From positions 186,190-250,189 of the forward strand of contig NHDW01000004.1 of the NCBI GenBank assembly GCA_002170535.1: a stretch of 64,000 bases of DNA. Direction: 5' to 3'. Position numbers and translations under genes: made by a program. Under the pieces are notes generated by a model, which was not told the DNA's origin, did not search any database, and worked only from the letters and a program-made list of their open reading frames with translations. Shown piece by piece: positions 25,395 to 59,545 of this stretch (position 1 is the first letter of the stretch; every line of letters begins with the position of its first letter). This stretch comes from Methylococcaceae bacterium TMED69. GTDB lineage: Bacteria; Pseudomonadota; Gammaproteobacteria; Ga0077536.

Positions 25395-25399
25395 TTTTA

Positions 25400-25580
25400 A
25401 GGATCCATGTTGCCGTGCTATACATTTACCTCGAACCGAAAGTTCAAGATTGGAACGTCCCCGACTGAATCAGGCTTTCTCAAACTCTGGAGAATGCTCA
25501 ACATCAGTACGACTTCTGCTCCTATTTTTTTTTAAGCATAGGCTCAGAGACTAATGAAAGCACATGCAACACAGAAACTA
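25400..25580 (-). ncRNA. ssrS: 6S RNA (SsrS); ends approximate
   Basis: Minus-strand sequence directly downstream of zapA matches remembered E. coli 6S blocks (CUGAGCC; GAGCAUNCUC; GAGAAAGCC; CUUGAAC...GGUUCGAGG). The 5' UUUCUGUGUUGCAUGUGCU pairs with the 3' AGCACGGCAACAUGG to close the structure. zapA-ssrS synteny. Confidence 0.6.
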
Positions 25581-29945: not shown

Positions 29946-30866
29946 ATGACCACTGTTAAAAAAAATAGCATAGACATTGTAAATGGGTGCATATATTCAA
30001 CCAACTTAATTGATTTTCAATTTATTAAAAGGGGCAAAGTGCGTGATATCTACGAGGTTGGAGATCGGCATCTTCTAATAGTCGCTACTGATAGGCTATC
30101 TGCTTTTGATATTGTTATGGCGCAGCCTATACCAAATAAAGGAAAAATCTTGACAACAATCTCTAATTTCTGGTTCGAAAAAACAAGCAAGATTATAAAG
30201 AATCATATTAGTGATATTAATATAAGAAGCTTGTTTTCTTCAGAAGAACTTTATAAAAAAATAAATGCTCAAATCTCAATAGTCGCAAAATTAGCACCGA
30301 TAAAGTTTGAGGCAGTCGTCAGAGGGTTTCTAGCCGGAACGGCTTGGTTAGATTATTTAAAGAACGATTCTGTATCTGGTGTAAAGTTAAGAAAAGGATT
30401 ACAAAAATTCGAGCGCCTTGATGAACCTATCTTTACCCCCTCGACTAAAGCAGCATTAGGCGATCACGATGAAAACATACCCTATGAAGATATGATTAAA
30501 TCCCTTGGTTATGAATTGGCAGAAGAAATAAAAAAAACTAGCATTATGCTTTATAAAGAAGCATTCGAATATTCTTTTTCAAAAGGGATTATACTAGCTG
30601 ATACCAAGTTTGAGTTTGGTTTGGATAGTCATGGGAACCTTATTTTGATTGATGAAGTTTTCACACCTGATTCCTCTCGATTTTGGGATAAATCGACTTA
30701 TCAAAAAGGAAGCGAACCCTTGAGTTTTGATAAACAATTTATAAGAGATTACCTCAATGCCAATTCTTGGAATCGAAAAGAAGAAATCTATTTTCCAGAG
30801 AAAATTATTAATCAAACTAGTGAAAGATATAAGTTAGCTCAGGAAAAATTAATAGGTAAAAGCTAA
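29946..30866 (+). CDS. purC: phosphoribosylaminoimidazole-succinocarboxamide synthase (SAICAR synthetase, long form)
   Basis: GKVRDIY motif and ADTKFEFG block; 306 aa. Confidence 0.9.
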   Translation: MTTVKKNSIDIVNGCIYSTNLIDFQFIKRGKVRDIYEVGDRHLLIVATDRLSAFDIVMAQPIPNKGKILTTISNFWFEKTSKIIKNHISDINIRSLFSSEELYKKINAQISIVAKLAPIKFEAVVRGFLAGTAWLDYLKNDSVSGVKLRKGLQKFERLDEPIFTPSTKAALGDHDENIPYEDMIKSLGYELAEEIKKTSIMLYKEAFEYSFSKGIILADTKFEFGLDSHGNLILIDEVFTPDSSRFWDKSTYQKGSEPLSFDKQFIRDYLNANSWNRKEEIYFPEKIINQTSERYKLAQEKLIGKS

Positions 30867-32014
30867 TTTTCTTCAAGAATGCTAATTACAGGTGACTTTT
30901 TTCCTTCTAAGAATTCTAAGAAAGCACCACCAGCGGTAGAAATATAAGAGATTTTATCCGAAACATTGAATTTCTCGATTGAGGCGATGGTATCCCCTCC
31001 GCCTGCCACTGAGAATGCAGAGGATTCGGCAATTGTTTCCGCTATGGTTCTTGTTCCATTGGCAAAGTTATCGAACTCAAAAACCCCTATCGGACCATTC
31101 CAAAGTATCGTTTTAGCGGATTGAATTTTTGATACGATTTTCTTTAAAGTTTTAGGTCCAAAGTCTAAAATAAGATCATTTTCCCTTATTTCATTGAGAG
31201 GCCTGATAGTACCAATAGCTGTTTTACTAAATTCACTGGCACAAACTACATCTATCGGGAAAACGATATTGTCAATATCTTTAAATAATCTACACGCGTC
31301 TTCATAGGCACCTTTTTCAAAAAGTGATTTCCCAATTTGATGGCCACGTGCTTTTATAATCAGATTTGCTATACCACCCCCTAAGATTAAATGGTCTACT
31401 TGTTTCGATAGATTCTTTATTAAGGCGGTTTTGGTTGATATTTTTGAGCCCCCTACAATTGCCACCGTTGGTGATTCATTTTTCTTTACAACTTTGTAAA
31501 GTGCCTGAACTTCAGATAAAAATAACGGCCCAGCTACTTTAGCTTGTGCAAATTGGGCTACACCATAATTAGATGCATGTGCTCTATGGCTATTAGAAAA
31601 AGCCTCGTTTATAAATATATCGCATAATTTACTCATCTTCTTAGCGAGTTGCGAGTCATTGCTGGTTTCGCCTTTTAGGAATCTCACGTTTTCGCATAAT
31701 AGAACCTCCCCCTTGTTAATCCTGACTCCGTCTATCCAATTTTTTTTAAACTTGACCGGCAGGCCGAGAGTCTTCTCGAGAGTTGGAATAAGTGTGGATG
31801 TTGATAAATTTAAATCTTCTGCTCCCTCTTTTGGCCTGCCAATATGGGTCACTAAGATGATGCTTCCCCCTTTATCAAGAATTTTATGAATGGTGGGTGC
31901 AGTTTGTCTAATCCTGAAGTCGTTGGTAACTTTTTTGTTTTCTAACGGTACGTTGAAATCAACCCTCAATAGTACTTGTTTATCTTCAAAATCAAGTTCT
32001 TCAAAAGGTATCAT
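30863..32014 (-). CDS. pgk: phosphoglycerate kinase
   Basis: Full-length PGK similarity (RVDFNVP, GGGASLE-like blocks); ATG at 32014 overlaps gap stop (ATGA). Confidence 0.95.
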
Positions 32015-33024
32015 GAACACTCTTTCATTTTTTTGGCCGTATCTAGCATCCGATTAGAAAAGCCCCACTCATTATCATACCAGCTTACAACCTTTACTAG
32101 GTTTCCCTCTATAACTTTGGTTTGAGCAGGATCTACGATGGATGACCTTGGATCGCCTTTGAAATCGATTGAGACCAGAGGTTCTTCACAAAACCCTAGG
32201 ATACCTTGTAAAGTTGAGTTTGCCTCTTCTTTTAAGATCCTGTTGACCTCTTCAGCACTTGTGTTTCTCTTCGCTTTAAAAGTTAGATCAACGAGCGATA
32301 CTACTAGTGTTGGTACTCTGACAGCGTATCCATCAAGTTTTCCTTTTAATTCAGGTAAGACTAATCCAACGGCGGATGCTGCTCCGGTTTTTGTGGGAAT
32401 TATTGATTGCGTGGCGGACCTGGCTCTTCTTAAATCATCATGATATACGTCACTTAAAACTTGGTCGTTAGTATATGCATGTACTGTGGTCATTAGACCA
32501 CTTTCCACCCCAATTTGCTTTGCTAATGGTTTTACTAAAGGTGCGAGACAATTAGTAGTACAGGATGCATTCGAAACGATTTTGTGGCTTGGTAAAAGGA
32601 CATTGTCATTAACACCATAAACGATTGTGGCATCAACATCATTTCCTGCTGGCGCGGAGATTAAAACTTTTTTGGCCCCTGAGGCGATGTGTTGATTTGC
32701 GCCATTTTTATTGGCGAAGATACCCGTGCATTCAAAAACAATATCTATTTTTAATTCTTCCCAAGGAAGTTTCGATGGGTCTTTTTCATTTAGAACAAAT
32801 ATTTTGTCATGTCCTATTTGTATATGGTCAGAATCTGAGGATATTTTCTGATCCATGGGTCCATAGGCACTGTCATATTTGAGTAAATGCGCATTTGCCG
32901 CGGTATCACCTAGATCATTGATAGCTATAAATTCAAGATCCGCATGTTTTTTAGTTTGATAATGAGCCCTGATAATATTTCTCCCAATTCTTCCAAACCC
33001 ATTGACCGCGATTCTCAATGTCAT
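32011..33024 (-). CDS. gap: glyceraldehyde-3-phosphate dehydrogenase
   Basis: [11 protein letters not shown] motif, SCTTNCLAP active-site block, 337 aa. Confidence 0.95.
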
Positions 33025-33046
33025 GATATCTATCTCCTATCTTATT

Positions 33047-35059
33047 TCATGGTTGTCTAAGATAATTTTTTATCTTAATCAGGCAGTTATCTAAGTCTAA
33101 TTCAAATTCTTTAAATAAAATGTCGGCCGGTGCTGAAGCCCCGAACTGATTTATTCCGATAGCAAGCCCTTCCTTCCCGATGTATTTGTACCAAAGGTCT
33201 GTTGATCCGGCTTCAATTGCAATCTTTTTTATACTCTCTGGCAGTACTGTTTTTTTGTATGATTCGTCCTGCTGGTCAAAAACTTGTGAGCAAGGCATGG
33301 AAACAACTTGAATTGCTAAACTCTCCTGCTTTAATGCCGAGGCAATTTCTAGAGCGAGGGAAACTTCAGATCCTGTTGCTATTATACATGCAATAGGATT
33401 GTCGATATTTTTGAGTATATACCCACCTTTTTTTAGATTTTGTATTTCAATTTGGGAAAGATCTAGTTGTGGCATTGATTGTCTAGAGAGGATTAGACAG
33501 GATGGACCGGTTTTTTTTTCGATAGAGGATTGCCAGCCAATGAGGGTTTCGGTTCTATCAGCTGGTCTCCAGACATCTAGATTAGGTATTAGTCGAAGCG
33601 CTTGTAAATGTTCAACAGGTTGGTGAGTGGGGCCATCTTCACCTAAACCTATGGAGTCATGTGTATAAACCAATACAGCGCGAATTTTCATTAAGGCTGC
33701 CATCCTGACGGCGTTTCTGGCGTAGTCTGAAAAGACCAAAAAAGTACCCCCATAGGGGATGCATCCCCCATAAAGTGAGATTCCATTCATTATCGCGGTC
33801 ATTCCAAATTCTCTGACGCCGTAGAAAAGGTAATTGCCTCCATAATCATTTAGATTAAGTGCCCTGCTAGACGTGGAAAACGTGTTGTTGGAACCAGTTA
33901 GATCGGCTGAGCCGCCAATTAACTCGGGTGTAGAAGGAGAGATCATATTCAAAACCGTTTGCGAAGATTTCCGTGTCGCCTCACTCTTTTTATCTTTCTG
34001 AATTTCTATGAGTGAGTTTTGAATGGTTTGGTTCCAATTATTAGGCAGCTTACAATTTACTCTTCGATCTAGTTCCTCCCAGTCTTCAGGGTAATCTTTT
34101 TTATATTTCTCAAGTATAGAATTCCATTCTCTTTCAGCAACCTCTCCTTTCTTCTTGCAATCCCAAGATTCGTAAAATGTTGTTGGAATTTCGAACGGAT
34201 CATAATTCCAATGTAAAGCTTCTCTTGTTTTCTTGATTTCATCTTCGCCAAGAGCTGCCCCATGAGAATCAGCTGTTCCAGATTTGTTAGGGGAACCATA
34301 GCCAATAGTGGTCTTACAAATAATGATTGATGGTCGGTCATGATTATCAATCGCGGAGGAATAAGCTTTATTTAAGCTTTCTATATTGTGGCCATCAACG
34401 TTTTCAATCACATGCCAACCATATGCTGAAAACCTTTCAGCTATATTTTCTGAAAACCAGTTTTTAATATCACCGTCAATCGAAATACCATTAGAATCAT
34501 AAAGAACATTCAATTTTCCCAGTCTTAGAGTTCCAGCTAAGGAGCAGACTTCATGTGAAATTCCTTCCATAAGGCAACCATCACCTACGAACGCGAACGT
34601 TCTGTTGTTGATAAGTTCGATATTTTTTTTATTAAATCTCGCAGACAAGTTTCGTTCCGCAATTGCAAATCCAACAGCGTTCGCAAGACCTTGGCCAAGT
34701 GGCCCAGTTGTGGTTTCGACTCCAGGCGTTTCTCGATATTCAGGATGTCCGGGAGTAGCAGAATGTAGTTGTCTAAACGACTTAAGATCACTGATTGACA
34801 AAGAATATCCGCAAAGATGCAATAGCGAATATATAAGCATGGAGGCATGACCATTTGATAGAACAAATCTATCCCTATTAAACCATTTTGGGTTCTTTGG
34901 ATTATGTTTTAAATAGTTTAACCAAAGGACCATAGCCGCTTCGGCTAACCCCATTGGTGCTCCAGGATGTCCTGATTTCGCTAATTCTACGGCATCGATC
35001 GACAAGAAACGTATTGCATTTGCAAGTTGCCTAGAATTTATTTGGTTTAAAGACTCCAA
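33047..35059 (-). CDS. tkt: transketolase
   Basis: LANAIRFLSIDAVELAKSGHPGAP TPP-binding start and full-length Tkt similarity; probable TTG start at 35059 after GGAGG (track GTG start 35089 less likely). Confidence 0.95.
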   Translation of the reverse strand: MESLNQINSRQLANAIRFLSIDAVELAKSGHPGAPMGLAEAAMVLWLNYLKHNPKNPKWFNRDRFVLSNGHASMLIYSLLHLCGYSLSISDLKSFRQLHSATPGHPEYRETPGVETTTGPLGQGLANAVGFAIAERNLSARFNKKNIELINNRTFAFVGDGCLMEGISHEVCSLAGTLRLGKLNVLYDSNGISIDGDIKNWFSENIAERFSAYGWHVIENVDGHNIESLNKAYSSAIDNHDRPSIIICKTTIGYGSPNKSGTADSHGAALGEDEIKKTREALHWNYDPFEIPTTFYESWDCKKKGEVAEREWNSILEKYKKDYPEDWEELDRRVNCKLPNNWNQTIQNSLIEIQKDKKSEATRKSSQTVLNMISPSTPELIGGSADLTGSNNTFSTSSRALNLNDYGGNYLFYGVREFGMTAIMNGISLYGGCIPYGGTFLVFSDYARNAVRMAALMKIRAVLVYTHDSIGLGEDGPTHQPVEHLQALRLIPNLDVWRPADRTETLIGWQSSIEKKTGPSCLILSRQSMPQLDLSQIEIQNLKKGGYILKNIDNPIACIIATGSEVSLALEIASALKQESLAIQVVSMPCSQVFDQQDESYKKTVLPESIKKIAIEAGSTDLWYKYIGKEGLAIGINQFGASAPADILFKEFELDLDNCLIKIKNYLRQP

Positions 35060-35211
35060 TATGCTCTTCCCTCCGATTTTATAGGTCACTGATTCGTACT
35101 AATTAATGCCTAATTATAGTTCAGACTTCTACTAACTGCACTTATAAAAGTATAATATAGTAAAAACTGAAACAAACCTTCTATATGATATCAGTAAATC
35201 GGAGATAAATA

Positions 35212-42104: not shown

Positions 42105-42201
42105 AACATATCCTTCATCATTTATTTTAATTTGTTAAATCAAAAATATAATTTTATCATAGTACATCAATAATGAGGTTAATTTCCATACTGGTATTTT
42201 G

Positions 42202-42972
42202 ATGCTTGAAGAAGTTATAGAAAATAAAAAGATAAGTTATAGTCTTGATTTTGATGAATCCAGAAAAAGAAACTTGTTTCTGATTCATGGGGCGTCCTGT
42301 GATTCGAAGGTATTTTTAGAACTTAGTAATAAACTATTAAAAAAATTTAATGTTATGTCAATTGATCTAAATGGCCACGGTGAATCAGGGGGAGAAGGAT
42401 TTAGAGGCGTAGTGGATCATGCGTTTGTTTGTGCTGAGCTTCTAGAAAAAAAGAACCTCGGGCGATGGAATATTATGGGCCATTCTCTCGGAGGTGCGAT
42501 TGCCATGACGTTAGCTTTGTATAAACCAGATTTAATTGACTCCCTTATCTTAGTGGCTACAGGTTCTCGTTTGAGAATCCCTGAAACTTTTCTATCAGAG
42601 ATAAAAAAGGGTAATAATTATGAGTTAAATAAAGAATTTTTAAGAAATTCGATGTTCGATGGTTCTAATGATAGCATCTTAGCCCCACTTTTGGAGATAA
42701 TGCAATCTACAAACCCCAAAGCGGTCTACAAAGATTGGTTAGCAGCAGATTCATTTGATTTATCTAGAAGGTTAAAATCAATAAAATCAAGATGCTTATT
42801 AATTTGCGGTGAAAATGATCCGTTGACACCTCCGAAATACCACGAGTTGTTGAACTCCGAAATACCTAGCTCAAAGCTTTCCGTATTTCCAAACTGTGGA
42901 CATTGGCCGTTTATTGAAAAATCCGAATTGTTTTTAGAGGAACTTGATAAATTCTTGTCTAGCCTTCAATAA
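42202..42972 (+). CDS. alpha/beta-fold hydrolase
   Basis: GHSLGG nucleophile elbow, 257 aa; ATG at 42202. Confidence 0.75.
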   Translation: MLEEVIENKKISYSLDFDESRKRNLFLIHGASCDSKVFLELSNKLLKKFNVMSIDLNGHGESGGEGFRGVVDHAFVCAELLEKKNLGRWNIMGHSLGGAIAMTLALYKPDLIDSLILVATGSRLRIPETFLSEIKKGNNYELNKEFLRNSMFDGSNDSILAPLLEIMQSTNPKAVYKDWLAADSFDLSRRLKSIKSRCLLICGENDPLTPPKYHELLNSEIPSSKLSVFPNCGHWPFIEKSELFLEELDKFLSSLQ

Positions 42973-43405
42973 TTTTAAGCATATCCGAGGCGTGACTTTG
43001 AGGATCTACGGCATCGAAATAATGTGTTACATTACACTCGGTATCCAGAATCACTGAGACTCGAGGTGCGTAGGAATCCGCTACTCCACAAATATTGAGT
43101 TTTTTAGACTCTTCAAGTCCAAGGTCTGAAAGGATGTCAAAAGGGAAAGAAAACTTTTCTTTGAAAGATTTATTATCTTCTGGTGAATCTCCGCTGACAC
43201 CAAGTATCACAGTATTTTTCTTAGTAAACTCTTGGATTCTATCACGGAACCCACTGCCCTCAATGGTTCATCCTGGTGTATCGGCTTTTGGAAACCACCA
43301 TAAAATAAGTTTTTTTCCAGAAAAATTATCGATAGAAACGACTTCTCCGTTTTGATTTACGAAAGATAAATTAGCTAGATTTTTACCAACTATAGTTTCA
43401 GGCAT
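42959..43405 (-). CDS. bcp: candidate selenoprotein: Bcp/PrxQ-type peroxiredoxin with in-frame TGA (43268-43270) at the peroxidatic Cys position
   Basis: Translation from ATG 43405: ...KKLILWWFPKADTPG-U-TIEGSGFRDRIQEF...VILGVSGDSPEDNKSFKEKF... aligns with E. coli Bcp YFYPKAMTPGCTVQACGLRD with TGA at Cys45. Frame continues into the track ORF 42959..43210. 7-bp hairpin 15 nt after UGA. Confidence 0.75.
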
Positions 43406-43418
43406 GGTCGTTATCCTA

Positions 43419-44312
43419 TTAAGTGATTGATGCAGTATAAATCTTATTGATTGCTAATCCTAGTCTTTCCGAGAACATTTGATCGGTCATGCCGGCTGAA
43501 AGTCCTTCGGTTAAGGCTCGAGAAAAGCTCGCAATTACTCCGAGATTATTGTGTAACTTTTTATTTGCTAATTCTTGAGGATATCCACCAGATAACGCTA
43601 CTACTCTTAAAATGTTATCTTGCTTTGATATATCTTGATAGAAATTTTCTTTATCTGGAAGTGTCAATTTTAACATTATGCGATCATTAATATTGAGTTT
43701 GTCTAGTTCCTTATGTAAATTTTCTAGCAACATGTTTTCAGCTTCTAGTTTAGCTGGGCAATTGATATCAATTTCTGGTTCAATTATTGGAACCAATCCT
43801 TCATTAATAATTACTTTTGCAGTTTCAAATTGTTGTTTTACTACTTTTTTTATTCCTGAATGGTTACTCGATTTAATGACTGATCTCATTTTAGTCCCAA
43901 ATATTTCTTTGTTTTTTGCAATCTTCAATATTTTGATTAGGTTAGGGTTAGGCTGCATTAATTGCACACCTTCTTCTTCGTCTGCAAGTCCTTTATCAAT
44001 TTTTAGAAAAGGGACAATTTCTTTTTTTTCCCACAAGTACTTTGCACAGTCAAGGCCGCAAAATTGAGAATTCATTGTTCTTTCAAAAAGAATTGCTCCG
44101 ATGATTTGCTTGCCGGTAAAGTTTGAGTCTGACACTATCCTTTCTCTCATTTTATGCACAAGTTCAAACATTTCCTCTTCGCTGGACCACTCATTCTCTT
44201 TGATTCCATAGTTCATTAACGCTTTCGGAGTGCTTCCTCCACTCTGATCTAACGCAGCAATAAACCCTAAACCAGTTTTAATTTTTGCTATTTTTAAGTT
44301 TTCTGATGTCAT
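43419..44312 (-). CDS. fructose-bisphosphate aldolase class I (short ~296-aa bacterial type)
   Basis: GKGFIAALDQSGGSTPKAL block typical of the ~296-aa class I Fba family. Confidence 0.85.
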   Translation of the reverse strand: MTSENLKIAKIKTGLGFIAALDQSGGSTPKALMNYGIKENEWSSEEEMFELVHKMRERIVSDSNFTGKQIIGAILFERTMNSQFCGLDCAKYLWEKKEIVPFLKIDKGLADEEEGVQLMQPNPNLIKILKIAKNKEIFGTKMRSVIKSSNHSGIKKVVKQQFETAKVIINEGLVPIIEPEIDINCPAKLEAENMLLENLHKELDKLNINDRIMLKLTLPDKENFYQDISKQDNILRVVALSGGYPQELANKKLHNNLGVIASFSRALTEGLSAGMTDQMFSERLGLAINKIYTASIT

Positions 44313-44356
44313 TATTTAGACCTTTCGTGATTATTGTAATCTAATTAAGCGTTGTT

Positions 44357-45340
44357 TTAATGCAAGGTTGGATTAATCCAAATTGCTTTTCTTTTTGCTG
44401 ATACCACATTTACAATAGTATGCTTGTCTCCTCTTTCGATTTCAATTGAGATGATATTGCCTGCTGGGCCTGCATTCCATATTTCTTTAAAAAGTTGATC
44501 TAAAGTTTTCGGTGCAACTCCGTTAATACTTTTTATAATATCTCCGTTACTTATCCCAGCTAAGGCGGCTGGGGAGGACTTATAGAGCCCTAAAACTACA
44601 AATTGTTCTTCTACAACGGATACAAAAAATCCCAAATAAGGCCTATTGCTTTCTTTGACTCCACCTGTCCTCTTTATTTCGGAGAAAAAAGACCATAGAG
44701 GATCTATCGGAATACACAAATTCCCTGAAAACTCGCTTTTACTGGTGGGTGGATTCTCCAAGTAAAGAGAACCTATTCCACTTAGCTCCCCTTTTTTATT
44801 GAGAAGAGCAGCTCCTCCCCAGTTTGGGTGTGATGGTGTTGTATAAAAAGCTCTGTCTAACACGTATTCCCAGTATCCTGTAAAGCTATCACAACTCCCT
44901 ATATCAACCACTACAGTCTGCTCTAAACCACCAAACCCTGCTAACATAAAGCCAGAATCTCCAGCATTAATCTGTTTATTACAATCTGATACAGGAATGG
45001 TAGGAATGGATATTGTACTTAACGGTTTTAATAGCCCTAGTCCGGATTCATAGTCGTACATTACTGTATCTGCCAATACAGTTTCGTCACTGGCTGTAGT
45101 TATCCAAATTTGCGTTGCTTCTGCAATGAGGTAGCCTACTGTAACAATTAGTCCCATCTGATTAATGAAAACACCATTGCCGGTTCTCTTTGTGCCTAAG
45201 ATATCGGCTGTTTGTGCATGCTCGGGGACAATAGTGGTGATTGATACTATTGCCCGGAGTCTTCTTTCCATTTCTTCGTCCGAAATGTCAAAGTTTTCGA
45301 ATCTTTCGCTCCGCGGTTGAACCATCTTTTCGTCTGTCAT
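44357..45340 (-). CDS. trypsin-like (S1C) serine peptidase with C-terminal PDZ domain
   Basis: Chymotrypsin-fold N-region with GDSG-type block (NAGDSGFMLAG); PDZ-like C-terminus (LGLYKSSPAALAGISNGDIIKSING). Confidence 0.75.
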   Translation of the reverse strand: MTDEKMVQPRSERFENFDISDEEMERRLRAIVSITTIVPEHAQTADILGTKRTGNGVFINQMGLIVTVGYLIAEATQIWITTASDETVLADTVMYDYESGLGLLKPLSTISIPTIPVSDCNKQINAGDSGFMLAGFGGLEQTVVVDIGSCDSFTGYWEYVLDRAFYTTPSHPNWGGAALLNKKGELSGIGSLYLENPPTSKSEFSGNLCIPIDPLWSFFSEIKRTGGVKESNRPYLGFFVSVVEEQFVVLGLYKSSPAALAGISNGDIIKSINGVAPKTLDQLFKEIWNAGPAGNIISIEIERGDKHTIVNVVSAKRKAIWINPTLH

Positions 45341-45359
45341 TAAAAATTATGTAATCGTC

Positions 45360-45704
45360 TTATTTCGAAAAAATGTCATTGAATTTATCCTCGTTGAAAC
45401 CTACTACAATCATATTTTTATAAATTATAGTTGGGGCACGAAGGTTCCCAGTTGGGCCCAACATAAATGGTGTTATGGAAGATTTTTTTTCATCTTTAAT
45501 ATCAAAATGATTTGTGTTTCTCCCCTTAAAAATAATTATTTTGACAGCTCTTTCTAGGAGGGACTCTGCTTCCGGTTTACCCAGTTTTTTGTTAGCTGAA
45601 ATTTCTTCGATTATTTGAATAGAATTTGCTTCCAAGAACTCGGATGCTTTGGTGCAAGTAGCTCATCCTTTTCGAAAGTAATACCATTTAATCTTTTTGC
45701 TCAT
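45360..45704 (-). CDS. candidate selenoprotein: ArsC/YffB/Spx-family thioredoxin-fold protein with in-frame TGA (45663-45665) replacing the first Cys of CxxC
   Basis: From ATG 45704: MSKKIKWYYFRKG-U-ATCTKASEFLEANSIQIIEE... aligns with E. coli YffB [24 protein letters not shown]. Frame continues into the track ORF 45360..45635 (whose M is a TTG Leu). Total 114 codons, typical family length. Confidence 0.7.
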
Positions 45705-46581
45705 AGTTTTCACATAATATATCAAAAGCATACTTATCGCCATCTTTTATAATTTGGCCAAAACTTGATCCTGAGAAGTGTGACCCTATCAATATACTGT
45801 TTTGTCCAGCGTTCTTTTCCAGAATTCTTCTTCTTGTTTTTATAGATAAATCTTTATCAAAATCATAATAGCTATTCCAATCAGGGCACGCTATTTGACA
45901 GGGATGATGTATCATATCTCCTGTTATTATAATATTTAAATTATTGTAATTAACTACAACGCTCGTATGACCCGGCGTATGCCCGGGTGTGCCAATTATT
46001 GTGACATTATTATCTATTGAATAAGGGGGACTAATGAACATAGCTTGGCCGCTCTTGATGACAGGGTTAATTGATTCTTCAATTATGTTTCCATGCAGTT
46101 TGTTTTCATACTTCTTAGCATGTTGAAATTCCTTTTCGGAAAAAATATATGATGCATTTGGGAATGTTGGTTCCCAAACGTTGTTTATTTTGGTGGTATT
46201 CCATCCGATGTGGTCCAAATGAATATGGGTGCATACTATATAATCTACTTCAGTTTGAACAACGCCTGCCGCTTGAATTTTTTCGAGGAACTTACTTTGT
46301 TTATTGGCCCAAGGTAGATAAGTAAGGTCTTTATGATTTCCAATACAAGTATCGACAATAATTATTTTATCATTGGATTCAATAACAAAAAGTTGGACGA
46401 CTATCTCTAGCCCTTGTTTTTCCGATAGAAAAGTTTGGTCTAACCAAGGTATTTTTTTTAAATTATCAGGGGTTGCATTTGGTATTAAAGGCAGAGTTCC
46501 CCGATTGGTTGTTTCGATTACCCTTTTTATTTTAATCTTATTGTCATTTGACCTTATAAGGTAGTTTTCTGTTGTTTTCAC
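45688..46581 (-). CDS. MBL-fold metallo-hydrolase
   Basis: HxHxDH motif (THIHLDHIGW), 297 aa; GTG start; 3' end overlaps the ArsC-family start by 17 nt. Confidence 0.8.
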   Translation of the reverse strand: MKTTENYLIRSNDNKIKIKRVIETTNRGTLPLIPNATPDNLKKIPWLDQTFLSEKQGLEIVVQLFVIESNDKIIIVDTCIGNHKDLTYLPWANKQSKFLEKIQAAGVVQTEVDYIVCTHIHLDHIGWNTTKINNVWEPTFPNASYIFSEKEFQHAKKYENKLHGNIIEESINPVIKSGQAMFISPPYSIDNNVTIIGTPGHTPGHTSVVVNYNNLNIIITGDMIHHPCQIACPDWNSYYDFDKDLSIKTRRRILEKNAGQNSILIGSHFSGSSFGQIIKDGDKYAFDILCENYEQKD

Positions 46582-46652
46582 TTAATTGAATGTAAAATCT
46601 TTAATAGTTTAAAAAAATGTACCATATAGAATTAGAAAGGGGAATCAGATTA

Positions 46653-47894
46653 ATGACGGCGAGAGCTTCAATAACCGGGGTATCTATGACAAAATTTGGA
46701 AAGTTTTTGAATAAATCTGTTAAAGACCTGGTGCAAGAATCGGTATCTGATGTTCTAACCGACGCCGGCTTATCAAAGTGTGATGTTGAAGCAATTTTTT
46801 TTGGAAATTGTGTGCAAGGCCATTTGGAAGGGCAAGATATGATCAGAGGTCAGGTAGCTCTCAGACCTATGGGCTTTGAAAAGTTACCTATATTTAATGT
46901 TGAGAATGCCTGTGCAACAGCTAGCACAGCATTCCATCTAGGTTATAACTATATTTGTTCTGGTGCGGCCGATATAGTTTTAGCTATCGGCGTCGAAAAG
47001 ATGAATTCAGAAGATAAAGATCTAATGTTTAGTGCATTTGATGGCGCTTGGGATGTACACAATATTGATTTAAATATAAAAACTTTTGAAGAAATGTCTA
47101 GAGATATCAGTTTAATAAACAAATTTGTTGGAAAAAAACAAAAAGCAAGTGTTTTTATGGAGGTTTATGCTGGTTGGTGCAGAAAGCACATGGAAGTTTA
47201 TGGTACGACCCAAAAACAGCTAGCAGCTGTAGCCTCAAAAAATCATATGAATTCAGTTACTAATGACAAAGCGCAATATAGAAAACCATTTACAATTAAG
47301 GATGTTTTGAATAGTCAAACGGTCATCCACCCACTTACTTTGCCTATGTGCTCGCCAATAAGTGACGGTGCTGCTGCTGCGATAATCTGTAGTCCGGCAG
47401 GATTAAAAAAGATCAAGGGTTCGATTAAACGACATATCCAAATTCGAGCTTCAGTAATTCAAACAGGATCTAATAGAGATATTTTAGATTTTAAAAAACA
47501 TATAACGAGATTGGCTGCAGAAAAGGCTTATGATTGTGGAATTGGTCCTAATGATCTAGATTTTCTGGAGGTTCATGATGCTACTGCTATTGGTGAAATT
47601 ATAGAAATAGAGGCTTTGGGAGTCTGCGAGGAGGGAGAGGGAGGCGTTTTTGCAGAAAAAGGTCTGACAGCTTTAAATGGTGCCATTCCCGTCAATCCCT
47701 CGGGTGGTCTCGAATCTAAAGGCCATCCAATTGGAGCTACTGGATTAGGTCAAATTTATGAGTTGGTCACTCAGCTAAGGGGGGAAGCTGTGGGTCGTCA
47801 AGTCGAGTCACCTCGGGTTGCGTTAGCACAGAATGGGGGCGGGGTCTATGGTATTGAAGAAGCGGTTTCATCAGTTACAATCTTATCTATTTAA
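46653..47894 (+). CDS. thiolase-family protein (SCP-x/lipid-transfer-type thiolase)
   Basis: Thiolase N- and C-domains with SCPx-type blocks (NVENACATAS; C-terminal GHPIGATG); ATG at 46653 after GGGGA SD. Confidence 0.75.
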   Translation: MTARASITGVSMTKFGKFLNKSVKDLVQESVSDVLTDAGLSKCDVEAIFFGNCVQGHLEGQDMIRGQVALRPMGFEKLPIFNVENACATASTAFHLGYNYICSGAADIVLAIGVEKMNSEDKDLMFSAFDGAWDVHNIDLNIKTFEEMSRDISLINKFVGKKQKASVFMEVYAGWCRKHMEVYGTTQKQLAAVASKNHMNSVTNDKAQYRKPFTIKDVLNSQTVIHPLTLPMCSPISDGAAAAIICSPAGLKKIKGSIKRHIQIRASVIQTGSNRDILDFKKHITRLAAEKAYDCGIGPNDLDFLEVHDATAIGEIIEIEALGVCEEGEGGVFAEKGLTALNGAIPVNPSGGLESKGHPIGATGLGQIYELVTQLRGEAVGRQVESPRVALAQNGGGVYGIEEAVSSVTILSI

Positions 47895-51886: not shown

Positions 51887-53554
<1,668 letters not shown>

Positions 53555-54568: not shown

Positions 54569-55208
54569 AAATGCATCCTAGTTTACCGTCTGTCTCATTA
54601 TTGATTTCCATGATTGTACTGAATACGTAGTGAGAATCTGCCGGTTGCAAAATGCACCGTAAATGATCTGACCGTTTATTAACCTTCCTTAAAATAGCGT
54701 TTGCTCCTGCAAGCGATCCACAAAGTAAACCTGATTCAGACCAGGCTGAATCAGGAACGGGAACAAGTTCTTTTAAAACTAAAGAAGCAACTGGTCCCAT
54801 CATCGCAAATTCACAGTAATCAGCACGTTGTACAACATAATTGACAGAGCTAGACGGAATTGAACTTTTAAAACCGTTAATCAACGTTTCGTCATAGGAG
54901 TTGACAAGTATGATTTTTTCTTGGTCAAGACAAATAATTCCACCACTACCCACTGAGGTCCATTGAAATGGCTCTATATCATTAATTTCAAAGTAGGTTT
55001 TTGTTATTAGCGCTGCTTCTTTCCCTAAAATTATTAACTTCTGAAGACAGGATAAATCGAATATGCAACTGATTTCTGAAGTGGCTTTGAAAGGTTTTCG
55101 AAGAGCACTTATTTGACAGGATTGAAATGTTTTAGTCTCTACTGTACTTTTATCGAAGAAAGCTCCTAAGGGGCTTGTGCTATCAAAGTCACCATGTATT
55201 AAAGTCAT
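54540..55208 (-). CDS. sarcosine oxidase gamma-subunit family protein (probable N-methylglutamate dehydrogenase subunit D)
   Basis: 222 aa, SoxG family size and position (last of four sox-like genes); ATGA overlap with alpha subunit. Confidence 0.7.
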   Translation of the reverse strand: MTLIHGDFDSTSPLGAFFDKSTVETKTFQSCQISALRKPFKATSEISCIFDLSCLQKLIILGKEAALITKTYFEINDIEPFQWTSVGSGGIICLDQEKIILVNSYDETLINGFKSSIPSSSVNYVVQRADYCEFAMMGPVASLVLKELVPVPDSAWSESGLLCGSLAGANAILRKVNKRSDHLRCILQPADSHYVFSTIMEINNETDGKLGCIFSYKNSSGE

Positions 55209-58057
55209 ACATTCTGCCTTTCATTTTCTGGATCATAAAAACTCGAAGAAACAACTAATGCGCTAAGAGTCGAGCCATCATCAAGTCTAATTTGGACTGA
55301 CTCGTTTTGATGAAACGGGACGTTTATCATAGCTAGGCCAATGATTTTCTTTAAGGTTGGGCTGAAGTTTACACTTGTTACTCTTCCTGTGATATCGCCT
55401 TGAAAGATTGTAAGATTATTTTCCTTGATCTCAAGTCCTCTTAAATCACTCATTTCGAAGCCTACAAGTTTTCGTGCTACATTTTCTTTTAGGTCTTTCA
55501 AACTGTTTCTACCATAAAATCGATCTTTCTTTAAATTAACCCCCCATCCTAGGTTAACTTCAAAGGGGTTGGTGTTACCATCTGTATCTTGTCCAAAAAT
55601 AAGATGGCCTTTTTCTAAGCGAAGTAATCTCTGCGCTTCTACTCCGAAAGGTTTAATGTGGTTAGGCCTACCCGCTTCGAGTAATCCATTCCAAACCCTA
55701 GCTAAGCTATTTGTAGGCATATGTATCTCATAACCTAGTTCGCCCACAAACCCTACACGCATTATTCTTGATGGTACTCCGCAAACGGTTGCCTCTCTAT
55801 AGCCTAAGTAAGGAAACTCCTCTGCATTGAGCGGATAATCCGTAACTTGGCTCAATACATTTTTCGAGGAAGGGCCGGCCAAATTCAAGGCACCGACTTG
55901 GCCCGTATGATCCCAAATTGTGACATCTAATTTTAATTGTGCCTTAAAAAGTTCAAGTAGCCTAACAACGGTTTGGGAGTGGCTACTAGTTGCTGTAATG
56001 TAAAAATGGTTTTCCCCAAGTTTTGCAGCTACTCCATCATCTACCAGCGTTCCACCGGCGTCTACCATGAAAATATACCGAGTCATTTCTAATTTTAATT
56101 TATCAAATTTGCAAGTATAAGCGTACTCTAGTAATGCCTCTGCGTCGGGCCCAAAAAGTTCGATTTTACCGAGTGTTGAAACATCAATGATGCCTACGTT
56201 TTTTCTCACTGTTGAGTATTCTTTAGCTATAAGATCTCTGGAAACCGATCCACCATAGGCCATTGGACGACGCCAAACCCCATTTTCCTTTATATCAGCC
56301 ATTTGTTCCTGGTGATATGCATCAAGACTAGTTCTTCTCTCTCTCCTTACTCGTCTGCCTGCAAGTTTTCCTATTGGTACAGGATAAACAAAAGGTCTGG
56401 GTGTTACAGTTCCTACATTACCTACGGGTAGTTCATTAAATTCAGCTACTAATCTGATGCCGTTTAAATTGGACAATTTGCCTTGACTAGGCCCCATTCC
56501 AATAGTGCTATATCTTTTCAGTAACTCAATTGAATCAAACCCTTCTTTCATGCCATTTATCAAATCCTTTACTTTTAAATCTTCATCCAGATCAATAAAC
56601 TCATTTCCTTTGGCATGCGGATAGATCGGGTAGGAATGGCTCTGATTTTCACAAGCTATTTCGATGTTATTCGAAACCACTTGATTCTCTAAGAAGGCCT
56701 CGCAAGCGGCGGCCGTGAGTTTACCATCTTCTAATCTGTTTGTAAGGTCATAAACACCCCTAACCGATCCAGCAGCGAAAATCCCTAAAGGCAACTCATC
56801 TGGGATCAGCTGATTAATTTCTTCAATGTACTTTAGCTTGCTTCCTGCTTGTACGAGCAAATTTGAAGCAGGCGACCAACCAATACTCATTATTAAGCCA
56901 TCACATACGATTTCTTTAGAGGAAGGATCATTGACGGTCCGGTAAACGAATGAACTTAAACAACCATTTTTGCTTTTTGCTTCCGTCGGAACTACATCAC
57001 TTACTACTTCAATCCCTATTGATTCTGCGTGCTTCTTAAGTACTCCATTTGCTTCAAAGGGTGATAGTTGTAAAATGTAATTTACATTTACTCCTGAGGC
57101 TTTAAGTTTCAATAGGCGTTTGAATCCTAAGTCATTTGCTACCAGTGCGATTGACTTTTCGAATGGGTCGATTGAATATCTATGAGCTAATCTGGCTACA
57201 GCGGACCCTAATACAACCCCGGGAAGATCATTATTTCGAAAAACGGCAGGTTGTTCATAGGCTCCAGAGCAAGTAATTATTGCTTTTGCTGAAACTAATT
57301 TACAACCATTTGGTCCTTCTAAAATTACCGATTTGTCATCGTAATACCCACTCGCGAAATGTTGATTTAAGCAAGTAATATTCGAGGCCGCTGTTTCCCT
57401 GATATTTGATTGGATTCTTTCCGAAAGATCTTCCAGTTCGAAGCCGGAACATCCCCCAAGTTTAAGATTTTCGTCTGCAATTATTACTTTGTACTTCGAT
57501 TTCGAAAAATACGCGGCTGCTGCGGTTCCTGAGGCACCTCCACCAATGATTAGAACATCGCAAAATAAGGTTTCAGAAGGATATCGTTTTTTAGTGTAAT
57601 TAGCCTTGACTTGCCCTAATCCAGCTAAGTTTCGGATAAGTTTTTCCCAATAGGGCCACAGAAAAGCTGGTTTAAAAAAGGCTTTGTAATAAAATCCGAC
57701 CGGAAGTATTGGTGCGAATACACCCAGAATACGAGTGAGGTCATTACGTACCCCACCGATTGTATTAATAGCTTTTAAGCTGCCATAATCCTCATTTGCC
57801 AGAGAAACATCACCTCTGATATTGGTTCTATCCTCAGATTGGAGGAGAACATTGGCGTCATGGTTAGCAAGTGAGACAAAGCCTCTTGGTCGATGGTATT
57901 TAAAACTTCTCCCTAATATTTTTTGTTCATTAGCTATCAAAGCACTTGTGATGGAATCACCTTTGAATGCGGTAATTTCATTGCCTTCAAATTTGAATGT
58001 TATCTTTTTGGAACGATCAATCCACTCATTATCTTTTGCTGGTAACCTTCTTGCCAT
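55205..58057 (-). CDS. sarcosine oxidase alpha-subunit family protein (probable N-methylglutamate dehydrogenase subunit C)
   Basis: 950 aa; N-terminal 2Fe-2S-like region, NAD/FAD Rossmann (IIGGGASG), C-terminal aminomethyltransferase/folate-binding (GcvT-like) domain. Confidence 0.85.
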   Translation of the reverse strand: MARRLPAKDNEWIDRSKKITFKFEGNEITAFKGDSITSALIANEQKILGRSFKYHRPRGFVSLANHDANVLLQSEDRTNIRGDVSLANEDYGSLKAINTIGGVRNDLTRILGVFAPILPVGFYYKAFFKPAFLWPYWEKLIRNLAGLGQVKANYTKKRYPSETLFCDVLIIGGGASGTAAAAYFSKSKYKVIIADENLKLGGCSGFELEDLSERIQSNIRETAASNITCLNQHFASGYYDDKSVILEGPNGCKLVSAKAIITCSGAYEQPAVFRNNDLPGVVLGSAVARLAHRYSIDPFEKSIALVANDLGFKRLLKLKASGVNVNYILQLSPFEANGVLKKHAESIGIEVVSDVVPTEAKSKNGCLSSFVYRTVNDPSSKEIVCDGLIMSIGWSPASNLLVQAGSKLKYIEEINQLIPDELPLGIFAAGSVRGVYDLTNRLEDGKLTAAACEAFLENQVVSNNIEIACENQSHSYPIYPHAKGNEFIDLDEDLKVKDLINGMKEGFDSIELLKRYSTIGMGPSQGKLSNLNGIRLVAEFNELPVGNVGTVTPRPFVYPVPIGKLAGRRVRRERRTSLDAYHQEQMADIKENGVWRRPMAYGGSVSRDLIAKEYSTVRKNVGIIDVSTLGKIELFGPDAEALLEYAYTCKFDKLKLEMTRYIFMVDAGGTLVDDGVAAKLGENHFYITATSSHSQTVVRLLELFKAQLKLDVTIWDHTGQVGALNLAGPSSKNVLSQVTDYPLNAEEFPYLGYREATVCGVPSRIMRVGFVGELGYEIHMPTNSLARVWNGLLEAGRPNHIKPFGVEAQRLLRLEKGHLIFGQDTDGNTNPFEVNLGWGVNLKKDRFYGRNSLKDLKENVARKLVGFEMSDLRGLEIKENNLTIFQGDITGRVTSVNFSPTLKKIIGLAMINVPFHQNESVQIRLDDGSTLSALVVSSSFYDPENERQNV

Positions 58058-58293
58058 TATTGTTCCTCAATGGAAAGTATGGCATTGGCTTTAGTTTCAC
58101 GGCTTACCCTAAACCACTTTTGTGAAGGTTGGTGATACCACCACTCCATTCTCTTAAGAGGTCGGCTATCTTGGTGATAGGCCCATCTGCCCGCTGAGCC
58201 CTCGAGATCGGCAGGCTCTGGGTCGATGGCGCCTCCATAAATGAATTCTGTGATGGGTCTTTCTCCAATCAATGGGCAATTTAAGTATTTCAT
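58057..58293 (-). CDS. sarcosine oxidase delta-subunit family protein (probable N-methylglutamate dehydrogenase subunit B)
   Basis: MKYLNCPLIGERPITEF start matches SoxD (MLLIECPNCGPRNENEF); ATG at 58293; stop overlaps alpha start. Confidence 0.75.
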   Translation of the reverse strand: MKYLNCPLIGERPITEFIYGGAIDPEPADLEGSAGRWAYHQDSRPLKRMEWWYHQPSQKWFRVSRETKANAILSIEEQ

Positions 58294-58303
58294 AGTGGTA
58301 AAA

Positions 58304-59545
58304 TTAGTGGCCGACTGAGGCCGCCCCTTTCTCCCCGACAAGCTTGAAATCCTCGAATCTATTAAGATTGAATTCAGTGATCAGTGAATCGTCTTTATTA
58401 AGGGCTATTGAGTTTGCCATACATTTTCCGCTCACCGGAGTTGCTTTGAAGCCCCAAGTACCCCAACCTGAATCTAGAAAGAATCCATCAACTGGAGTAG
58501 TTCCCATAATAGGAGCAAAGTCTGGTGTCATGTCTGCCATGCCAGCCCATTGTCTATTAATCTTTACAGAACTTAGAAACGGGAATAAATCTAATATTTG
58601 GTCGCACATACCAGAGACAAATTCATAGCTTGATTTAGTGTTGTGCTGTTCAATTGGATCGACTGATGCACCCATCACAAGCTCTCCTCTGGAGCTTTGG
58701 CTGACGTAAATATGTAAACTTCCTGAGACGATTATAGTGTTTAGCCATGGTTTCATTGGTTCAGTAACACAGGCTTGGAGAGGATAGATATCGATTGGAG
58801 AATCGAGTCCGACCATGTTTAAAACTGTCGGTGTGGCACCCGCTACGGCTGAAAGTACTGTACTGGTTTTAATTGGGCCTCTATTTGTTTCAACAGAAAC
58901 GACTTTGTTTTTCTCGATATTAATTCCTGTTACTAGGGTATTCTGATGGATCTCAACCCCTTTTTGACAAGCTTTTTTTGCGTATCCCCATGCTACGGCA
59001 TCGTGCCTCGCGACAGCCCCAGGTGCATGAAACAGTGCGCCTTCAATAGGATGGTTGCCACCGCACTCAAGATCTATCTCAGGACAGGCCGCTTTGACCT
59101 CAGACGGTCCAACAACACTGCTGTCTATCCCATAATGTTTATTTACTTCTGCCCTCCATCTGGCGGTCCTCAAAGTAGCGTCGCTGTGTGCCAAAGTGAA
59201 GTGGCCCCTTTCAGAGAAAAAGATATTAGTTTCAAGTTCTTCCGAAAGTTGGTTAAATAATCGTACGCTCTCACCATAAAATTTAACCCCCTCTTCGGTT
59301 AGATAATTTGATCTTATAATGGTAGTGTTTCTACCTGTATTTCCAGCTCCAATATAGCTCTTTTCTAAAACGGCTACTTTACTTATGTTATGATAGTGGG
59401 AAAGATAGTAAGCACAAGCTAGGCCATGGCCACCGGCGCCAATTATTACAACATCATAGGATTCCTCAAGATCTTTCGCAGGATTGAACCACCTGTGTTC
59501 TGAATGGTTATCTATGAAGCCGTACTTTAATAATCTTATAGACAT
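58304..59545 (-). CDS. sarcosine oxidase beta-subunit family FAD oxidoreductase (probable N-methylglutamate dehydrogenase subunit A)
   Basis: 413 aa, VVIIGAGGHGLA dinucleotide-binding motif, DAO-family fold. Confidence 0.85.
   Translation of the reverse strand: MSIRLLKYGFIDNHSEHRWFNPAKDLEESYDVVIIGAGGHGLACAYYLSHYHNISKVAVLEKSYIGAGNTGRNTTIIRSNYLTEEGVKFYGESVRLFNQLSEELETNIFFSERGHFTLAHSDATLRTARWRAEVNKHYGIDSSVVGPSEVKAACPEIDLECGGNHPIEGALFHAPGAVARHDAVAWGYAKKACQKGVEIHQNTLVTGINIEKNKVVSVETNRGPIKTSTVLSAVAGATPTVLNMVGLDSPIDIYPLQACVTEPMKPWLNTIIVSGSLHIYVSQSSRGELVMGASVDPIEQHNTKSSYEFVSGMCDQILDLFPFLSSVKINRQWAGMADMTPDFAPIMGTTPVDGFFLDSGWGTWGFKATPVSGKCMANSIALNKDDSLITEFNLNRFEDFKLVGEKGAASVGH

Follow-up and report, generated by a model that had tools for sequence, protein, structure and literature searches.

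The locus described here raises two questions: whether two in-frame TGA codons, one in each of two small redox genes, are read as selenocysteine (Sec), and whether the five-gene run in which both genes lie is a functional module. The run occupies positions 42959-46581 on the minus strand of a 64,000-nucleotide stretch of DNA (the window) from Methylococcaceae bacterium TMED69 (contig NHDW01000004.1, positions 186,190 to 250,189). From first gene to last, it encodes an MBL-fold hydrolase (MBL), a small ArsC/Spx-family protein (ArsC-like), a protein with an HtrA fold and a PDZ domain (HtrA-like), a class I fructose-bisphosphate aldolase (FBA) and a Bcp/PrxQ-like peroxiredoxin (Prx). An earlier note on this DNA had proposed that both redox genes encode selenoproteins and that the run is a stress-responsive redox neighbourhood. 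Our analysis supports the first proposal, and it is very probable that what we have here is two ordinary bacterial selenoprotein genes in a tightly spaced, lineage-specific run, rather than a conserved functional module.

The Prx gene (42959..43405, minus strand; 148 amino acids) and the ArsC-like gene (45360..45704, minus strand; 114 amino acids) each contain exactly one in-frame TGA. In the Prx gene it is codon 46 (43268..43270, minus strand), within the motif T-P-G-U, and the ArsC-like gene has it at codon 14 (45663..45665, minus strand), within the motif G-U-A-T-C. GTDB representative genomes, without the window's own species, were scanned for relatives of the Prx, giving 320 relatives with a best match of 59%; the codon was counted at the 73 loci in which the PKADTPG motif was found. 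TGA was present at the homologous codon in all 73 loci, 66 of which came from different species-level genomes, and these loci span the Alpha- and Gammaproteobacteria, Gemmatimonadota, Latescibacterota and Verrucomicrobiales. For the ArsC-like protein, a metagenome scan identified at least 589 relatives, and TGA was found at the homologous codon in each of the 81 loci that were examined for it. Coding conservation flanks both TGAs, with the frame and the motifs kept at amino acid identities down to approximately 40%.

The closest full-length homologues of both proteins have a W exactly at the TGA site. This is because short contigs had been translated under code 4, and the codon itself is TGA; many ENA gene calls of homologues are full-length, with a spurious Trp at the Sec site, for this reason. 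Distant homologues have Cys at the site, as TPGC in Nitrospina-type peroxiredoxins and as G-C-x-x-C in ArsC-like proteins. Both families therefore contain Sec/Cys pairs, in which the U of the Prx corresponds to the peroxidatic Cys of TPGC and the U of the ArsC-like protein to the first Cys of CxxC.

A different explanation would be that the TGAs are true stops, the genes being pseudogenes, split or misassembled, or that TGA has been reassigned to Trp or Gly. This would agree with the annotation, as gene callers and GenBank have only fragments: in the Tara Mediterranean metagenome-assembled genome (MAG) of TMED69, a gammaproteobacterium in or next to which exact protein matches place the window, the ArsC-like gene appears as a 91-amino-acid fragment following the TGA (OUU75416.1) and the Prx gene as a 101-amino-acid fragment (OUU75413.1), both labelled as hypothetical proteins. 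It would also agree with those ENA calls that read the site as W. However, the identical TGA occurs in independent assemblies from many samples, and in 66 (Prx) and at least 79 (ArsC-like) distinct relatives, both flanks are conserved at the protein level, and the residue found at the site in distant homologues, which is the catalytic position, is Cys and not Trp or Gly. TGA ends 17 of the 60 large open reading frames (ORFs) in the window under the standard code, and the other genes of the window are uninterrupted; reassignment of the genetic code was rejected from this stop-codon usage. The explanation by true stops or reassignment is, therefore, effectively refuted already, and we give it next to no credence.

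A read-through scan of the window found no further credible TGA-interrupted gene, and the statement of the earlier note that both Sec genes lie in one block is correct for these 64 kb. Two additional TGA-interrupted candidates were rejected in the window, one of them overlapping a 6S RNA and the other being of low complexity.

Immediately 3' of both UGAs, hairpins resembling the bacterial selenocysteine insertion sequence (SECIS) were found. The Prx element (43224..43263, minus strand) consists of an upper hairpin, GGGUUC-CGUGAUA-GAAUCC, at 43252-43234 and a lower helix in which 43263-43258 pairs with 43229-43224. The ArsC-like hairpin (45628..45647, minus strand), GCAUCCG-AGUUCU-UGGAAGC, has 7 pairs (one of them A.A) and a loop of 6 nucleotides (nt); in the window sequence, 6 of the 7 pairs are formed, at -9.1 kcal/mol. 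Both hairpins are in the same register, starting 15 nt after the UGA and with the loop starting at 21-22 nt, and both apical loops, CGUGAUA in Prx and AGUUCU in ArsC-like, have G at position 2. A G in the apical loop is a feature used for recognising bacterial SECIS elements (PMC1088965).

The pairing was assessed in distinct sequences of each family, with the 3' partner slid along as a control. For the Prx hairpin (62 distinct sequences), 91.8% of the cells were paired, compared with 12-60% when slid, and for the ArsC-like hairpin (70 sequences) the values were 89.0% and 25-41%. Covariation was seen as CG/UA exchanges in the lower Prx helix and, in the ArsC-like helix, at the third pair, which occurs as CG, GC, GU and AU. 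In Cys homologues, compared at the DNA level with one per family, 2 of the 6 upper pairs (Prx) and 4 of the 7 pairs (ArsC-like) were present. The family consensus sequences are GGRUUC-CGUGAUM-GAAUCC for Prx and GCNUCCR-AGUUYU-YGGANGC for ArsC-like.

The nucleotides of the 19-nt core of the Prx element hardly vary among the 62 distinct sequences, which come from several phyla. The synonymous sites of the hairpin are frozen (TTC CGT GAT MGA ATC) even though the genomes differ widely in G+C, which accounts for the peptide G-F-R-D-R-I-Q being invariant among Sec forms and not among Cys forms. The core, GGRTTCCGTGATMGAATCC, was seen to be near-invariant across Proteobacteria, Gemmatimonadota, Latescibacterota and Verrucomicrobiales, in proteins that are just 43-59% identical. 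This could be due either to a very strong constraint at the RNA level or to lateral spread of the gene.

Compared with the paradigm of the bacterial SECIS, that of E. coli fdhF/fdnG (Zinoni et al. 1990, cited in PMC1088965), the elements found here have in common the hairpin within the coding sequence immediately 3' of the UGA, the small apical loop with G and the fixed spacing from the UGA. The hairpin sequences, however, are unrelated to that of fdhF, and SelB binding is only putative here. As in the mechanism of E. coli fdhF, a complex of SelB, GTP and Sec-tRNA(Sec) would bind the hairpin and deliver selenocysteine in place of release factor 2.

Several observations have to be set against reading the two codons as Sec. 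Genes for selA, selB, selC and selD are absent from the window (25 ORFs scanned), in which the only tRNAs are tRNA-Gln and tRNA-Met, with no tRNA-Sec. The upper Prx helix never varies, and so shows conservation without covariation. Single-sequence folding of the regions after the UGAs was no better than that of shuffled sequences (z = +0.55 and -0.71), RNAfold prefers another local hairpin for Prx, and a search of Rfam, at gathering thresholds and at E<=10, gave chance matches only and none to a SECIS family. As the folding of single sequences is not significant, the evidence for the SECIS elements is purely comparative, and we infer the competence of the organism for Sec insertion from the genes themselves. 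With the Sec/Cys pairs, the conserved TGA and the SECIS-like hairpins taken together, the proposal that both redox genes are selenoprotein genes is borne out: on this comparative evidence, both TGAs are judged to be true Sec codons and both genes bona fide selenoprotein genes.

For the Prx, PF00578 (AhpC-TSA) was matched at 81 bits against a cut-off of 26, and T43, U46 and R115 (the first two within T43-P-G-U46) were invariant in the alignment. The Bcp/PrxQ equivalog models were matched below their cut-offs (NF006960 at 88.5 against 140 bits, NF053650 at 73.5 against 260 bits), and it is for this reason filed as Bcp/PrxQ-like and not as Bcp. It has no resolving Cys at +5 and is, therefore, related to E. 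coli Bcp as a 1-Cys-type protein rather than as its orthologue. We read it as a putative 1-Cys-type Bcp/PrxQ-like peroxidase in which Thr43, Sec46 and Arg115 form the Prx catalytic triad, Sec being the peroxidatic residue. Peroxiredoxins with TxxU (COG1225/Bcp, pfam00578) are a known marine selenoprotein family with 43 and 253 genes in the two surveys; the family ranked second in abundance in the Sargasso Sea survey, and the 253 genes are those of GOS (Zhang, Fomenko & Gladyshev 2005, PMC1088965; Zhang & Gladyshev 2008, PMC2398784). Like the members of this family, the Prx of the window has the AhpC/TSA fold and a TxxU motif whose Sec occupies the peroxidatic site. Both are of marine bacterial origin, their Cys homologues are plentiful, and a SECIS hairpin whose loop contains G follows closely on the UGA. 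No essential difference was seen between them.

For the ArsC-like protein, the model NF041106, 'ArsC family (seleno)protein', was matched over its whole length (1-107 of 107) at 105.1 bits against a cut-off of 85. It carries a UxxC motif (U14-A-T-C17), and its C-terminal block, LGPTGNLRAPT...VGFNE, is conserved. The Pfam ArsC family (PF03960) was not reached at E<=0.01, and there are no ars genes near the gene in the window. The active site of R773 ArsC is made of a single Cys and an Arg triad; the motif found here is, unlike that of R773 ArsC, Spx-like (of the CxxC type). The protein does not qualify as an arsenate reductase, an activity that is neither known nor implied for it, and the name is for it a label of the fold and not of the function. 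It is most likely a thiol/selenol-disulfide oxidoreductase of the ArsC/Spx/YffB fold family, and would be a small redox protein working through U-x-x-C. In the GOS data, 'arsenate reductase 2' (cd03032, UxxC) was described as a selenoprotein family of 42 genes (PMC2398784). This family corresponds to NF041106, and the features in common are the UxxC close to the N-terminus, the ArsC/Spx/YffB fold family and the occurrence of both Sec and Cys forms.

The two selenoprotein genes are arranged with the other three as the earlier note had described, with five co-directional genes on the minus strand at 42959-46581. The first gene encodes the MBL-fold hydrolase (45688..46581, minus strand; 297 amino acids, lactonase-like), annotated in GenBank as a hypothetical protein (OUU75417.1). 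It matched Pfam Lactamase_B at 68 bits and has an intact HxHxDH motif in the form THIHLDH; its best NCBIfam matches were lactonases of the AidB/YtnP type, far under their cut-offs. Its 3' end overlaps the ArsC-like gene by 17 nt (45688-45704), which may allow translational coupling between them. The gaps that follow are of 19, 44 and 13 nt, close to the approximately 20, 45 and 14 nt given earlier, and separate the ArsC-like gene from the HtrA-like gene (44357..45340, minus strand; 327 amino acids), the FBA gene (43419..44312, minus strand; 297 amino acids) and the Prx gene. The FBA (OUU75414.1; Pfam Glycolytic) matched NF003784 over its full length at 437 bits against a cut-off of 392, which is an equivalog-level match to class I fructose-bisphosphate aldolases of the PRK05377 type, with no differences seen.

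The HtrA-like protein was called an S1/PDZ protease in the earlier note; the fold was confirmed, and the catalytic triad is missing. Like HtrA, DegS and DegP (S1C), it has a trypsin-like domain and one PDZ domain (Pfam Trypsin_2 31 bits, PDZ_2 36 bits), and its family profile aligned to DegP, DegQ and DegS chains at E-values of approximately 1e-19 to 1e-28. It differs from them in that all three catalytic residues are replaced and neither a signal peptide nor a membrane anchor is present. When it was aligned with DegP, DegS and DegQ, pairwise and by profile, the His of the triad fell on Tyr70 (TVGYLI), the Asp on Gly100 (YESGLGLL) and the Ser on Gly175 (HPNWGGAAL). The three replacements are found without exception in 15 members of an HtrA-like family of approximately 325 residues across Proteobacteria, in which H171, W174, W157-E158-Y159, D96 and R233 are also invariant. 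With no signal peptide or anchor, the protein would be cytoplasmic. From these residues, it is almost certainly not a protease and probably a non-proteolytic binding protein, and the family as a whole is likely to be a cytoplasmic pseudoprotease. The family is widespread and is annotated as 'S1C family serine protease'. In the literature that was searched, nothing relevant was found on triad-less bacterial HtrA proteins. No conserved partner was found for the family, as the neighbours were inconsistent in six genomic contexts; in one distant genome (L170), AhpC-TSA and CMD/AhpD-like genes lie directly upstream of the HtrA-like homologue.

Whether the run is transcribed as one unit can be considered from its layout. 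All five genes are on one strand with short or overlapping junctions, and no terminator-like sites were found in the gaps by a scan of low power. At its 3' end, the run meets a convergent alpha/beta-hydrolase gene (42199..42972, plus strand), the 3' end of which overlaps that of the Prx gene by 14 nt, so that there is no room for a terminator at this end. At its 5' end, the upstream gene is divergent and encodes a thiolase. The first ATG of this ORF (46617-47894, plus strand), at 46617, is not conserved in the related locus L009, from the MAG DS_MAG30 (assembly JAYYOR01), and the ATG at 46653 is. The true start is probably 46653 (413 amino acids), which is used by GenBank and most gene callers, and this widens the divergent intergenic region between the MBL and thiolase genes to approximately 71 nt (46582..46652). 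With this start, a promoter for the run would be confined to 46582-46652.

No consensus promoter was found in 46582-46652 by scanning. A point against a single transcript is that promoter-like hexamers are present in the 44-nt gap before the FBA gene, where they occur at chance frequency. As the counts equalled those expected from shuffled sequences, the scan for promoters and terminators is uninformative. The intergenic gaps were also aligned with those of L009, and no clearly conserved promoter was seen. From this arrangement, it is plausible that the run is a single transcription unit in this lineage, and it would probably be transcribed largely from the divergent region.

In L009, the order of nine genes is kept, with 57-90% amino acid identity, the 17-nt overlap and both TGAs. 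The order there is HAD and thiolase, then MBL, ArsC-like, HtrA-like, FBA and Prx, followed by the hydrolase and ADH; the GTG start and first codons of the MBL gene, the convergent arrangement of the hydrolase and Prx genes, and similar gaps are all present as in the window. In a more distant locus (L074), FBA, Prx, the hydrolase and ADH are kept, the other genes of the block are missing, and two ORFs on the opposite strand lie between FBA and Prx. The sub-arrangement of thiolase, MBL and ArsC-like genes also occurs in one other locus (L100). Elsewhere, no genes of the block were found within 7 kb of the Sec-Prx gene in 78 of 80 genomes, and ArsC-like loci had no block gene nearby in 78 of 80, with an upstream MBL gene in 2 of the 80 and an HtrA-like gene in none. 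As the gene order is limited to TMED69 and one related MAG, the adjacency is a lineage-specific local synteny and not a conserved module.

These results bear on the idea that the genes act together as one stress-responsive redox operon, in which peroxide detoxification, thiol repair and proteolysis are combined, in an organism with a minimal, thiol-only selenoproteome. The co-directional genes, their tight spacing, the terminators that were not found and the order kept in L009 are all in keeping with it, as are the AhpC-TSA and CMD/AhpD-like genes of L170 and the thiol-redox bias of the community-level literature. However, we regard it as unlikely. As a functional neighbourhood, the run fails on synteny, since the order is kept only in the closest relative, being interrupted in L074 by the two opposite-strand ORFs and absent elsewhere in the 80-genome and 80-locus sets, and since HtrA-like homologues have varied neighbours. 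The 'protease' has no triad, and the FBA is a housekeeping gene of central metabolism. The description as stress-responsive is not supported; no regulator or stress-promoter motif was found. From a window of this size, moreover, a selenoproteome cannot be defined: that 64 kb lack fdh and grd genes says nothing about whether the selenoproteome is minimal and thiol-redox only, because the contig alone is 460 kb, seven times longer. In surface-ocean selenoproteomes, thiol peroxidases and oxidoreductases dominate and FdhA genes are few (PMC1088965, PMC2398784), and both genes of the window are of the thiol-redox kind, but this literature speaks of communities and not of this genome.

That two Sec genes lie within 4 kb of each other is nothing unusual in itself, and it is likely that more are present elsewhere in the genome. 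Neighbouring Sec gene pairs, such as Prx with SelW and others, were reported on single reads in the GOS study (PMC2398784). In our own scans, the ArsC-like(Sec) gene is followed immediately, in three metagenome loci, by a small Grx-like ORF (L130:409-675, L155:1296-1526 and L167:1450-1695) with an in-frame TGA in the motif U-G-P-C (VYSNVG-U-GPCHQAMEYL). This may point to a Grx-type partner of the ArsC-like protein. In a fourth locus, on a high-GC contig, the ArsC-like(Sec) gene has at a distance of 0.8 kb a gene (L147:1260-1673, minus strand) for a Prx with a signal peptide and the sequence WFPKAFTPG-TGA-TEEL, and this pair is an independent co-location of the Prx and ArsC-like selenoprotein families.

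Such pairs could indicate that Sec genes are placed together for the sake of Sec decoding itself, through a shared selenium supply or a locally limiting SelB, with selection for the adjacency although the partners vary by lineage. The Grx-like neighbours in three loci, the T-P-G-TGA Prx of L147 and the pairs on single GOS reads all point in this direction. The pairs, however, are a small minority, amounting to approximately 4 of the 80 ArsC-like loci and 1 of the 80 Prx loci, two unrelated genes separate the Sec genes of the window, and in a genome that has several Sec genes, chance alone should now and then bring two of them close together. We therefore find this explanation decidedly unlikely for the window, and retain that of two ordinary selenoprotein genes in a lineage-specific run.

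A further possibility, and a very improbable one, is that the run is a true operon in which the dead cytoplasmic HtrA/PDZ protein serves as a substrate-binding adaptor or redox-sensitive holdase together with the two selenoproteins. The Sec-Prx would then be a peroxide sensor and the U-x-x-C of the ArsC-like protein a reductant or relay. If this were true, the run would represent a new, selenium-dependent module for protein protection, and the AhpC-TSA and CMD genes of L170 would be an independent trace of this partnership.

Outside the run, and 8 kb away from the class I FBA gene, there is a cluster of pgk, gap(epd)-like and transketolase genes (30863-35089, minus strand). A downstream cluster for sarcosine-oxidase-like alpha and beta subunits (55205-59545, minus strand) adjoins a GroEL gene (51887-53548), and a 6S RNA (SsrS) gene is found at 25398-25580 (minus strand), with 53.9 bits, which is above the Rfam gathering threshold.

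To summarise, the two genes are new, mis-annotated members of known selenoprotein families, and the cluster in which they are found is an unremarkable lineage-specific arrangement. The main value of the analysis is for annotation, as recognition of the Sec codons restores two active-site selenoproteins. A 'W' at the position of a catalytic Cys is a usable flag for selenoproteins that have been missed, and the consensus sequences of the two SECIS families could become covariance models, as Rfam has no matching one. Of the elements described here, only the family of triad-less, cytoplasmic HtrA/PDZ proteins might be worth following up. No new question is opened by the selenoprotein result, and the known picture is confirmed, in which bacteria of the surface ocean employ Sec chiefly for thiol peroxidases and oxidoreductases.

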